Position numbers and translations under genes: made by a program
Origin: Escherichia phage PinkRuby
Direction: 5' to 3' (one strand)
Length of the DNA stretch: 64,000 nt
Sequence record: PP925839.1
Part shown: in pieces, positions 1-1,916 of the stretch
Layout: the number at the start of each line of letters is the position of its first letter
Numbering within the stretch: the stretch's first letter is position 1
The notes under the pieces: generated by a model
Seen by the model: the letters and a program-made list of their open reading frames with translations, nothing else
What the model was told of the DNA's origin: nothing
Databases searched by the model: none

Positions 1-112
1 GAATATCCCAGCGATGTGCCATCATTCCAGGCTTACGAGAACCAGTAACTCGTCCCATAAATAAATCTTTATCTTCTGTCATGAAGATAATACCAGCTGA
101 TAATGTTTTCAT
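1..112 (-). CDS. Nudix hydrolase-like protein, N-terminal fragment (gene continues beyond window start)
   Basis: ATG at 112..110 overlaps stop of upstream gene (ATGA); translation MKTLSAGIIFMTEDKDLFMGRVTGSRKPGMMAHRWDI resembles a Nudix N-terminus; not in ORF track because partial. Confidence 0.4.
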   Translation of the reverse strand, partial: MKTLSAGIIFMTEDKDLFMGRVTGSRKPGMMAHRWDI

Positions 113-597
113 TTTAATTTCCTGCATTCAGTGATAAAATTATTTAAATTTTGAGTATATTTCTTTTCATCAAAAATCTTTTGCTGCCTACGTAACCGCC
201 ATGGCATTTCAATGAACACGCACCATATTCCTGATAGTACTGCTGCTGTAAAAATATTAACAAGTATAATTAAAAGAATCCAATCTTCCGTTCTGCCTAC
301 TGGACTTTCTCCAAAGAAGCAAAATACAAATGATGTCACAGGAAAACTAATAATATACCACAGAATAACCTTCTTATCTGTGAACCAATCAGCGTTCGTT
401 AACTTAGCACGACCATTTTGAATACACACGAATTTATCATCTGTTACAGTAGATGGCTTAACTGCTTGATATCCCATTCTAAACTCCCTAATTAATCGTT
501 TCTTTGTATCTTCAGAACAGCCGCTCCAGTCAACTCTATCGACTGAAATGCCATCGTCCCCATCATCTAAATCATACCAGCGAGTTTTTAAAATCAT
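109..597 (-). CDS. hypothetical protein with two C-terminal predicted transmembrane helices
   Basis: ORF track 162 aa; ATG start; hydrophobic stretches VILWYIISFPVTSFVFCFF and WILLIILVNIFTAAVLSGIWCVF; stop/start overlaps with neighbours. Confidence 0.6.
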   Translation of the reverse strand: MILKTRWYDLDDGDDGISVDRVDWSGCSEDTKKRLIREFRMGYQAVKPSTVTDDKFVCIQNGRAKLTNADWFTDKKVILWYIISFPVTSFVFCFFGESPVGRTEDWILLIILVNIFTAAVLSGIWCVFIEMPWRLRRQQKIFDEKKYTQNLNNFITECRKLK

Positions 598-968
598 TTG
601 ATTTTCCTACAATCATTCACGAATTCTTTCATTGATTCATTTTCAATATAAGACATGTAGTTATTATATTCTTTTAATTGTATTTTGTAATCCTTTTTTC
701 TTTGCCAATTTATTTTAAAATTATCATAATGAAAATATAAAATGATACTAAAGAATGAAAATAATGAAATTGCTATAGTATAATGAAGTTCACTCCAAAC
801 TTCTATTATATCTACTATACCGCTGACGTTACTGCGGATGTTTAAAATAATACAGTCAATCATTAATCCAATAAGACTACCAGCAAGAGCTGCAGCCAAC
901 GCCACAGCAAAAATTAAAAATGACTCAGAAAAAGAATATTTGACTTTATTTAGTTTTGGCTTTTGCAT
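594..968 (-). CDS. hypothetical small membrane protein (two predicted TM helices)
   Basis: ORF track 124 aa; ATG start inside 3' end of upstream gene; hydrophobic segments. Confidence 0.6.
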   Translation of the reverse strand: MQKPKLNKVKYSFSESFLIFAVALAAALAGSLIGLMIDCIILNIRSNVSGIVDIIEVWSELHYTIAISLFSFFSIILYFHYDNFKINWQRKKDYKIQLKEYNNYMSYIENESMKEFVNDCRKIK

Positions 969-1342
969 CGTGATTCCTTAACAAATTTCATAATTTCATT
1001 AAATTCATACATATTTAGTTTAAGCTGGTGTTCCTTTTTAATCTTTTTACACTGAGCTTTCCATTCACGTACACGTTTACGATAATGCCTTCCTTGATAC
1101 CAATATCCTACCCAATTTACAGGTACCAATAAAAATGGAACTACAAATGGAAGAATTAATACGAACAAAAATATTACGCCAGATTCAATATCAGTCATAA
1201 AGTCTATAACCATTCCAACAATCAATAGAATTACAAATGATATAGCTGTCACAGGACCTATTAATATATCAGTAGGAATTAGCTGGCGCTTTAATTCATA
1301 CTTCACAGGTTTACTTGGAAGGTATAGTGATGGCTTTGACAT
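950..1342 (-). CDS. hypothetical small membrane protein (two predicted TM helices, basic C-terminus)
   Basis: Track ORF 950..1363 begins on a TTG; first ATG (MSKPSLYLPSK...) at 1342 preceded by AAGGAA; junction sequence homologous to that of the next gene. Confidence 0.5.
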   Translation of the reverse strand: MSKPSLYLPSKPVKYELKRQLIPTDILIGPVTAISFVILLIVGMVIDFMTDIESGVIFLFVLILPFVVPFLLVPVNWVGYWYQGRHYRKRVREWKAQCKKIKKEHQLKLNMYEFNEIMKFVKESRCKSQN

Positions 1343-1916
1343 ATTCTCTACATTCCTTAACAAATTTTTCTAATAATAAATCGCTTTCAAAATTAGGATT
1401 TTCCACGAATTTATCAAAAAGATCATCAACAATAGTTAAGATATTCTTTTTGCTAAGAATACGTTTATTTTCATATTTTGTTTCAGAGTCAACTATAAGA
1501 GTAAAGAAATATTTCTTTCCCTGAAATTTTACCGTAGTATCAATATAAAATAAATTTGACTTTTGTAAATTACGTTTAAACCATGCGTCACTTAAACTAT
1601 AAACGCCAAGATAATCATAATCGTCATTTAAATAACAAACTGTCCATTCAGGAGAAATGAAATCAGTAAATTCAACATCAAAATCACACGTCAATGAATG
1701 AATTGATTCAATACTTTTAATGAGTATTCCAGGACGTATTAAAGACTTTTTACCTTTATAAAATCCAGAAAGACTTTCATCAGTTTCATATGAAGACCCC
1801 CAATAGTAATTACGTCCTTCTGCCATACGTTTAAGAGCATTTAATAATTGATCTGGAACATCAACCTGTCTTTGGAACTCTTCAAACATTGAATTGAAAT
1901 CACTTTGCATTTTCAT
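1311..1916 (-). CDS. hypothetical protein
   Basis: ORF track 201 aa; ATG start; no recognisable motif. Confidence 0.6.
   Translation of the reverse strand: MKMQSDFNSMFEEFQRQVDVPDQLLNALKRMAEGRNYYWGSSYETDESLSGFYKGKKSLIRPGILIKSIESIHSLTCDFDVEFTDFISPEWTVCYLNDDYDYLGVYSLSDAWFKRNLQKSNLFYIDTTVKFQGKKYFFTLIVDSETKYENKRILSKKNILTIVDDLFDKFVENPNFESDLLLEKFVKECREYVKAITIPSK

Follow-up and report, generated by a model that had tools for sequence, protein, structure and literature searches.

Why should four adjacent small phage genes meet at junctions whose DNA looks alike? The question is raised by the start of a 64,000-nucleotide (nt) stretch of Escherichia phage PinkRuby (sequence record PP925839.1; the whole stretch is called the window below), where an earlier interpretation of the letters alone (the sequence-only reading) had described four translationally coupled genes with repeated junctions. 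By gene order and family profile, these four minus-strand genes are the orthologues of T4 e.5, e.4, e.3 and e.2. They are already known as T4 open reading frames (ORFs), uncharacterised; what we add here is a single C-terminal motif common to their products, the paralogy of e.3 and e.4, and gene loss mediated by the junctions. We regard this account of the genes and their evolution (their identity, the single motif, the paralogy and the recombination at the junctions) as very likely to be correct. In the searchable literature we found no description of the motif, of the relationship between e.3 and e.4 or of cassette polymorphism arising at the junctions. The four genes, and the gene that follows them, are:

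1311..1916, minus strand: e.5 orthologue, a soluble protein of 201 amino acids ending ...LLLEKFVKECREYVKAITIPSK; phrog_2607, E-value 5.7e-108
950..1342, minus strand: e.4 orthologue, 130 amino acids with two predicted membrane helices, ending ...EIMKFVKESRCKSQN; phrog_2604, E-value 3.6e-70
594..968, minus strand: e.3 orthologue, 124 amino acids with two predicted membrane helices, ending ...SMKEFVNDCRKIK; phrog_2330, E-value 2.3e-61
109..597, minus strand: full-length e.2 orthologue, 162 amino acids, ending ...NLNNFITECRKLK; phrog_2203, E-value 9e-78
1..112, minus strand: 5' end of nudE (Nudix hydrolase), whose ATG overlaps the e.2 stop codon (ATGA)

Gene identity and the shared C-terminal motif

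Many Tequatrovirus genomes are 94-98% identical to the window over its first 3 kb, and on this nucleotide identity the source is a Tequatrovirus, a T4-like phage. The gene order e.6-e.5-e.4-e.3-e.2-nudE is identical in the window, T4 and GiZh, and all four proteins match PHROG families of the T4 genes over their full length. In an old T4 record (L13089) the e.5-e.2 genes carry the names msp4-msp7. Orthologous proteins from other Tequatrovirus phages are 94-99% (e.5), 82-98% (e.4) and 80-98% (e.3) identical; e.4 is present in 656 phage records (tblastn) and e.2 in 533. Searches of Pfam (E-value up to 0.1) and NCBIfam gave no significant match for any of the four proteins; among precomputed Pfam families, PF26876 covers e.5 and PF26896 covers e.2. 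A word-indexed protein search reached only relatives at least 69% (e.3) or at least 82% (e.2) identical, and returned one additional e.5 homologue at 47% identity. Several names given to e.3, e.4 and e.5 orthologues in GenBank ("sulfurtransferase," "phosphoserine phosphatase," "DNA primase") look spurious and are supported by no family model.

The small genes overlap at every junction, as first described (by 32, 19 and 4 nt), and e.2 and nudE also share 4 nt (ATGA). The 16-mer AAATTTGTTAAGGAAT occurs exactly twice in the window, at 973-988 (e.4/e.3 junction) and 1352-1367 (e.5/e.4 junction), where the expected count is 0.25 even allowing up to two mismatches; it is the longest exact direct repeat locally. 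A second element, TGYAGGAAAWTMAAATGA, is likewise found twice in the window, at 109-126 (e.2/nudE junction) and 594-611 (e.3/e.2 junction), against an expectation of 0.01. Its third degenerate base had been given as C or T and is actually C or A (TGTAGGAAAATCAAATGA versus TGCAGGAAATTAAAATGA). The sequence-only reading had sorted these junctions into two homologous pairs. The repeats are real, but the pairs are not independent: one C-terminal protein motif is found in all four proteins. The C-terminal peptides and the MSKP and MQKP starts that it listed agree with the translations.

The common motif is hydrophobic-x-x-F-[IV]-x-[ED]-[CS]-R, in the form LEKFVKECR in e.5, IMKFVKESR in e.4, MKEFVNDCR in e.3 and LNNFITECR in e.2. 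The codons from the phenylalanine to the arginine lie as follows:

1347..1364, minus strand: e.5 motif codons F185-V-K-E-C-R190; the internal AAGGAA is the putative Shine-Dalgarno sequence of e.4 (ATG 1340-1342)
968..985, minus strand: e.4 motif codons F120-V-K-E-S-R125; the internal AAGGAA is the putative Shine-Dalgarno sequence of e.3 (ATG 966-968)
606..623, minus strand: e.3 motif codons F116-V-N-D-C-R121; the AGGAAA after them is the putative Shine-Dalgarno sequence of e.2 (ATG 595-597)
121..138, minus strand: e.2 motif codons F154-I-T-E-C-R159; the AGGAAA after them is the putative Shine-Dalgarno sequence of nudE (ATG 110-112)

Near the C-terminus, F-[VI]-x-[ED]-[CS]-R is found in 4 of the 863 ORFs of the window (stop-to-stop, at least 30 amino acids), and these are the four genes in question. 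When the scan covers a T4-sized genome (T4 1-76 kb, the window and T4 129-169 kb; 2547 ORFs), the strict motif is confined to e.5, e.3 and e.2, including the T4 e.2 remnant, and two ORFs in non-coding frames. Positions -3, 0, +1 and +4 make up the hydrophobic face of an amphipathic helix (hydrophobic moment 0.40-0.49), and AlphaFold2 models the tails of e.5 and e.2 as helices, at low confidence.

To follow the motif into other genera, we surveyed 21 loci anchored on e.6 (e.6 identity 60-98%) and inspected L006, L010-L012, L019-L021, L023 and L025 together with T2, JS09, P479, NC-G and UFV11. In every inspected locus the gene after e.6 encodes a soluble e.5-type protein or its remnant (154 to 243 amino acids), and the gene directly behind it codes for a protein in which membrane helices are predicted. 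BLAST single linkage groups the e.5-type proteins other than the Gaprivervirus form; the 184-amino-acid Gaprivervirus type is linked to this group by profile (92.9% probability over 160 residues). The motif terminates the e.5-type proteins and most of the membrane proteins in these loci, as well as other small soluble proteins farther along the same variable region. Conservation of the motif extends to Mosigvirus, Gaprivervirus, Dhakavirus and loci still farther removed, where e.5-, e.4/e.3- and e.2-like and other small proteins carry it. In Mosigvirus JS09, for example, it reads QFIMECR (e.5), EFVKEIR (e.4) and, immediately before the stop codon, NFIKECRK (e.3), and the e.3 junction of that phage, TTTATTAAGGAATGTAGAAAATGA, merges the two junction types that the sequence-only reading had distinguished.

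Across these instances the encoding DNA is not fixed. Phenylalanine is encoded by TTT or TTC, cysteine by TGT or TGC, isoleucine by ATT, ATC or ATA, and arginine by all six of its codons (AGA, AGG, CGT, CGC, CGA, CGG). The middle pair of residues may be K-E, K-H, K-Y, K-Q, D-Q, A-E, T-E or N-D, and therefore the Shine-Dalgarno sequence is often absent from the motif itself. From the phenylalanine codon to the next ATG the distance ranges from approximately 17 to more than 50 nt. Because codons, middle residues and distance to the ATG all vary, it is the peptide that is under constraint. For the gene that follows, the Shine-Dalgarno sequence comes either from K-E (AAGGAA) or from the arginine codon together with the purine-rich codon after it (AGGAAA, AGAGG).

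In the window, AAGGAA or AGGAAA stands 6-13 nt before every downstream ATG, which bears out the earlier placement of the ribosome-binding sites within the C-terminal codons of the upstream genes. All junctions combine a stop/start overlap with a Shine-Dalgarno sequence inside the upstream coding sequence, as in a coupled operon, and from the overlaps we infer that translation is probably coupled. The genes are packed end to start, each downstream start codon lying 0-32 nt from the upstream stop, and the motif codons, or the purine-rich Arg-Lys or Arg-Glu codons directly after them, would double as the Shine-Dalgarno sequence of the next gene. On this account the DNA of the junctions is alike because a conserved protein tail and a translation start occupy the same stretch. 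Two other features were considered and set aside: RNA structure that masks the downstream starts is not supported by folding, and the window junctions contain no GGAG of the kind processed by RegB.

Paralogy and cassette changes at the junction repeats

By full-length comparison and family profile, e.3 and e.4 are paralogues. In BLASTP over the full length, the two window proteins match with an E-value of 0.006, and a Dhakavirus-type e.3 matches the window e.4 with an E-value of 1.9e-4. Both proteins start M-x-K-P-x-L, and e.3 cross-matches phrog_2604, the e.4 family. Alignment of the E3 and E4 family profiles (hhalign) gives a probability of 92.6% and an E-value of 4.6e-7 over the 40-residue, predicted cytoplasmic tail; reversed-profile controls were never better than 0.0017. 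Where the first membrane helix begins, e.2 and e.4 have two adjacent 9-mers in common (CCTGTGACA...TCATTTGTA).

Relatives of PinkRuby differ in which of these genes they carry. In T2 and in locus L006, e.2 is precisely absent: the tail of e.3 is joined to the start of nudE by ...GATTGCAGGAAATTAAAATGAAAACA, via the common TGCAGGAAA..AAATG repeat, which is what crossing over between the pair of TGCAGGAAA(A)TTAAA(A)TGA repeats seen in T4 would be expected to yield. The gene order in Gaprivervirus is e.5'-e.4-e.3. In Dhakavirus NC-G and loci L013, L015 and L017, e.4 is precisely absent and e.5 is joined directly to e.3. The hybrid e.5' tail of these e.4-less loci is ...ECREYAKEVQNGTA in L013 and L015 and ...GAA in NC-G and L017, to be compared with ...ECREYAKGVQNANVISAK and ...FIKEVRNGTA; the crossover falls within AAGGAGGTTCnnAATG, which is common to both Gaprivervirus junctions. 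UFV11 (L032 1501-1821) has a 106-amino-acid in-frame e.4::e.2 chimera in place of e.4, e.3 and e.2. It fuses the N-terminus of e.4 to e.2 from the first membrane helix to the tail, with the architecture kept, and the crossover lies in the short identity CCTGTGACA..TCATT inside the first membrane helix. Protein P0110 of UFV05 is the same natural chimera, also of 106 amino acids. Other changes are an internal deletion of e.3 in L010 and a frameshift of e.5 in L006.

Together with the paralogy of e.3 and e.4, the precise cassette losses at the junction repeats and the UFV11 chimera uphold the earlier idea of serial duplication or cassette insertion. The repeated junctions, and the short identities in the paralogous membrane helices, act as in-frame recombination sites. 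Recombination there deletes, and presumably duplicates, whole genes without damage to tail, ribosome-binding site or downstream start.

The state of e.2 also varies. The full-length protein consists of a 75-amino-acid N-terminal domain, two membrane helices and the tail. PinkRuby e.2 is intact (162 amino acids) and abuts nudE, whereas T4 e.2 is frameshifted (102 amino acids) and followed by a 160-nt gap. The T4 gene is a remnant of the 162-amino-acid gene (T4 67491-67960; L001 3492-3961), and the gap between it and nudE still encodes, in other frames, the second membrane helix and the ...NNFITECRKLK tail. Shortened e.2 forms of 102, 106, 122, 142 and 145 amino acids are common in public data.

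Between e.3 and e.2, Mosigvirus, Gaprivervirus, Dhakavirus and others have a further tandem array, made up of paralogues that are small, acidic and soluble (L003 3731-4525; L004 4191-5243; L028 1648-2889; L019 and L021, approximately 6570-7620). Most of its proteins end G-x-W-[VI]-S-S-S-x-x-C before the stop codon, and some end ...FNSSMSC or ...YPSSC. Most of the stop codons fall inside TGCTAAGGAA, immediately ahead of the following ATG, a further instance of homologous junctions. The Mosigvirus and Dhakavirus e.2 homologue is found approximately 3-5 kb downstream of the e.4/e.3 position (L010 8852-9157 and 9845-10336; L028 5908-6495) and adjoins or nears nudE, as seen in Dhakavirus NC-G. Because these two genera have the second array between e.4/e.3 and e.2, the direct e.3-e.2 contact seen in Tequatrovirus looks derived, via a large deletion.

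Predicted topology, expression and possible roles

What might the four proteins do? Kyte-Doolittle hydropathy gives two hydrophobic helices each in e.4 (approximately residues 24-45 and 55-77), e.3 and e.2 and none in e.5, in agreement with the three two-helix membrane proteins of the sequence-only reading; e.2, e.3 and e.4 are already annotated in T4 as "conserved hypothetical, predicted membrane protein." That reading had called for a topology prediction, and the distribution of charge supplies one. Lysines and arginines number 4-5 ahead of the first helix, 0-1 in the loops, which are acidic, and 9-15 beyond the second helix, and therefore both the N-termini and the C-termini, including the tail, are predicted to be cytoplasmic. 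E.4, E.3 and E.2 are accordingly predicted to be two-helix inner-membrane proteins with both ends in the cytoplasm. The predicted periplasmic loops are 9-18 residues long, and that of e.3 is its least conserved part.

The ratio of nonsynonymous to synonymous substitution rates (dN/dS) is 0.14-0.73 for e.2-e.5, against at most 0.08 for e.6, which indicates purifying but relaxed selection on the four genes. Supplementary tables on T4 infection place e.2-e.5 in the early RNA class and give them a protein-level time class, hence the proteins were detected (PMC9697503 supplements). In a supplementary table of a genome-wide T4 knock-down, e.2-e.6 are scored "Not Fit," with prior essentiality status "UNKNOWN" (PMC11879866 supplement); we read this score as no detectable fitness cost under laboratory conditions. 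In the main texts of T4 papers we found no mention of e.2-e.5 or msp4-msp7, and only supplementary tables were informative; the HIDEN-SEQ paper and the CRISPRi-ART main text do not mention e.2-e.5. An HMMER search with the e.5 profile against 1.84 billion representative proteins gave five matches, all of them e.5 or e.5 fragments. The AlphaFold2 model of e.5 (mean predicted local distance difference test, pLDDT, 65) has no convincing fold match in the PDB, and its matches in a viral structure library are all to uncharacterised proteins from T4-like phages.

It is tempting to hypothesize that the shared tail serves assembly or docking, a possible role that we put forward only tentatively. Membrane-anchored assembly or docking would be the most economical model because an e.5-plus-membrane-protein core is conserved, the tail is shared and predicted to be cytoplasmic, and the genes are tightly packed. 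E.2-E.5 would then be dispensable accessory factors at the cytoplasmic face of the inner membrane, where the tail would bundle E.5 with membrane partners or dock all of them on one common partner; the role is probably host-dependent, e.g., counter-defence or exclusion. A more specific version, which we consider doubtful, makes the C-terminal helix hydrophobic-x-x-F-[IV]-x-E-C-R a portable docking tag by which a changing set of accessory proteins would reach one common partner at the membrane face. Its cargo would comprise soluble E.5-type proteins, membrane proteins of the E.4/E.3/E.2 type and the small soluble tagged proteins of other genera.

Several observations weigh against our account as a whole. 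Members of the e.4 family often have serine, isoleucine or valine at the cysteine position of the motif. E.2 and E.5 detectably resemble the other proteins only over the last 10-14 residues, and their tails could have been acquired instead of inherited. The e.4-deletion crossover of the Gaprivervirus/Dhakavirus comparison lies in the AAGGAGGTTC..AATG ribosome-binding site, outside the motif codons. In RNA folding, the start regions at the junctions have a probability of being unpaired of 0.45-0.69, so masking is not predicted and independent initiation, instead of strict coupling, is possible. The structure models are mediocre (pLDDT 65 and 51) and give no functional clue, and protein-protein contact and membrane insertion of the e.2-e.5 products are predicted only, any phenotype being conjectural.

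The likeness of the junctions might also originate at the RNA or the DNA level. Convergence on a good translation-initiation region (Shine-Dalgarno sequence, A-rich spacer and ATG), with the C-terminal peptides as a passive by-product of that RNA signal, would fit the purine-rich hexamer before each downstream ATG, the presence of AAGGAGGTTCnnAATG, the site of the e.4-deletion crossover, at both Gaprivervirus junctions, and the ...TGCTAAGGAA ending before each ATG in the second paralogue array of related phages. We nevertheless consider convergence unlikely. Conservation reaches 12-20 nt upstream of the Shine-Dalgarno sequence, to an invariant phenylalanine and a hydrophobic residue at -3; arginine is kept with both AGR and CGN codons, and cysteine and phenylalanine with both of theirs; the K-H, K-Y, K-Q and D-Q variants have no Shine-Dalgarno sequence inside the motif; the variable distance to the ATG includes a 30-nt spacer after L025 7845-8153; and the tails are significantly similar at the protein level (hhalign). 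Alternatively, the repeated junction could be a mobility linker acting at the DNA level, selected for gene shuffling in the manner of promoter-early stem-loop (PeSL) cassettes, its encoded peptide merely tolerated. PeSL-mediated shuffling is documented in T4-type variable regions (PMC2839356, PMC4122927), and the precise in-frame cassette losses and the chimera at repeats are what such a linker would produce. Such a linker seems to us very unlikely, however, since exact identity is short (16 nt at most), codons drift across genera and the peptide is kept, promoter and stem-loop are absent from the junctions, and proteins whose genes are scattered and not adjacent also conserve the peptide.

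Two further alternatives concern the proteins. The sequence-only reading pointed to superinfection exclusion or lysis regulation as roles for the membrane proteins, which would place them beside Imm, Sp, RI and RIII. They are indeed small, early, predicted inner-membrane proteins of a T-even phage, dispensable in single infection and, as exclusion genes often are, variable between phages. We find this quite unlikely: Pfam matches none of them, and hhalign comparisons with T4 Imm, Sp, RI, RIII, T, Ac and others stay at background, the best E-value, 0.0019, lying in the range of the reversed controls. Probabilities were at most 14% for Imm (which gave that E-value), at most 1.3% for Sp, and at most 1% for the lysis regulators (holin T, antiholin RI and RIII). 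The short periplasmic loops, of which that of e.3 is the least conserved part of its protein, and the predicted cytoplasmic position of the shared element also argue against such a role (Sp and RI function in the periplasm), and searchable papers report no exclusion assay. Could e.2-e.5 instead be decaying remnants that no longer have a function? The frameshifts of T4 e.2 and L006 e.5, the internal deletion of L010 e.3, the common shortened e.2 forms and the knock-down without fitness cost can be cited in favour. This is highly improbable in view of a dN/dS below 1 in all comparisons, the persistence of the e.5-plus-membrane-protein core across several genera (e.6 identity down to 60%), the detection of the proteins in T4 infection, and the fact that persisting deletions are in frame and preserve the architecture.

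Genomic surroundings and known systems

Upstream of the array lie three further features:

1935..1955, minus strand: hairpin GGGGC-UUCG-GCCCC between e.6 and e.5, with no T run after it on the coding strand
1958..2551, minus strand: e.6, the highly conserved upstream neighbour, listed for context only
2596-2624: near-consensus early promoter upstream of e.6

The promoter, the only strong one, and the hairpin are both upstream of the four-gene array, and e.5-e.4-e.3-e.2(-nudE) would form an early polycistronic unit read from this promoter. The T4 record L13089 annotates a stem-loop at the position equivalent to the hairpin. Because it lacks a T run, the tetraloop hairpin is more suggestive of a role in RNA stability or processing than of intrinsic termination. 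The e.6 protein is identical in PinkRuby, T4 and T2, and the dN/dS limit given above comes from its comparison with Mosigvirus. Judged by eye, it is apparently rich in coiled-coil-type repeats; it has no Pfam or PDB match. A relationship to PspA/IM30 was rejected (no Pfam or PDB match; hhalign probability of 0.2% against E. coli PspA), and the label "host specificity protein" in some records has no visible basis. At the other end of the array, the start of nudE is ambiguous (window 110-127): a second in-frame ATG lies 15 nt upstream, inside the e.2 motif codons GAATGC. The upstream ATG (MQEIKMKT...) is annotated in T4, GiZh and UFV11 and the downstream one in T2. Farther away, a minus-strand ORF of 187 amino acids at 3518-4081 starts MKTYAEFLTEA. 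This start is similar to the capsid-targeting sequence by which T-even internal proteins are marked, and it points to a gene of the internal-protein type lying between the tRNA cluster and the e.8 region.

How does the e.5-e.2 repeat compare with known systems? PeSL cassettes mediate modular shuffling in T4-type phages (PMC2839356, PMC4122927). Like them, the repeat is found at the gene boundaries of a variable region and ends in a Shine-Dalgarno sequence and an ATG, and, on comparative evidence only, it provides crossover sites at which whole small genes are excised or inserted and the neighbours are undamaged (T2 and L006 without e.2, the Dhakavirus type without e.4, and the UFV11 chimera). 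Unlike PeSL, which is intergenic and has a sigma-70 promoter and a stem-loop, the e.5-e.2 repeat is coding and keeps the reading frame and the operon structure, and none of the four junctions has a promoter-like site or a hairpin. Because it is coding and without promoter and hairpin, we place it outside the PeSL family, as a functional analogue.

A second likeness is to the capsid-targeting sequence of the T-even internal proteins, also a short terminal peptide on diverse, fast-evolving accessory proteins that are interchangeable cassettes. The HIDEN-SEQ paper notes that Bas37_0260 and IPI-III resemble each other in this N-terminal signal alone. Unlike the e.5-e.2 motif, however, the capsid-targeting sequence is N-terminal, is cleaved and packages its protein into the capsid; the e.5-e.2 motif is C-terminal, on membrane and soluble early proteins, and the likeness is an analogy only. 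The resemblance of the motif itself to the capsid-targeting sequence MKTYxEF[IL]xE or to the gp21 cleavage site [IL]-x-E is treated as coincidence, given its C-terminal position and its presence on membrane or early proteins. With T4 Imm, Sp, RI and RIII, most of which are membrane- or periplasm-associated, the e.2-e.5 products have in common that they are small and non-essential; they differ in the lack of any sequence or profile similarity and in that their conserved element is predicted to be cytoplasmic.

To our knowledge, approximately half of the T4 genes have no known function, e.2-e.5 included. The present analysis turns four anonymous ORFs into a testable module with one shared, predicted cytoplasmic tail, a conserved core of E.5 plus a membrane protein, and a changing number of paralogues, which shifts through clean in-frame recombination at the junctions. 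One short sequence appears in three roles, as protein motif, ribosome-binding site and recombination linker. If the docking tag were real, it would be an early-protein counterpart of the capsid-targeting sequence, and its coding sequence would serve in addition as a recombination linker for cargo swaps. For the T4-type phages as a group, the repeat adds a coding-sequence variant to the PeSL model of variable-region shuffling.

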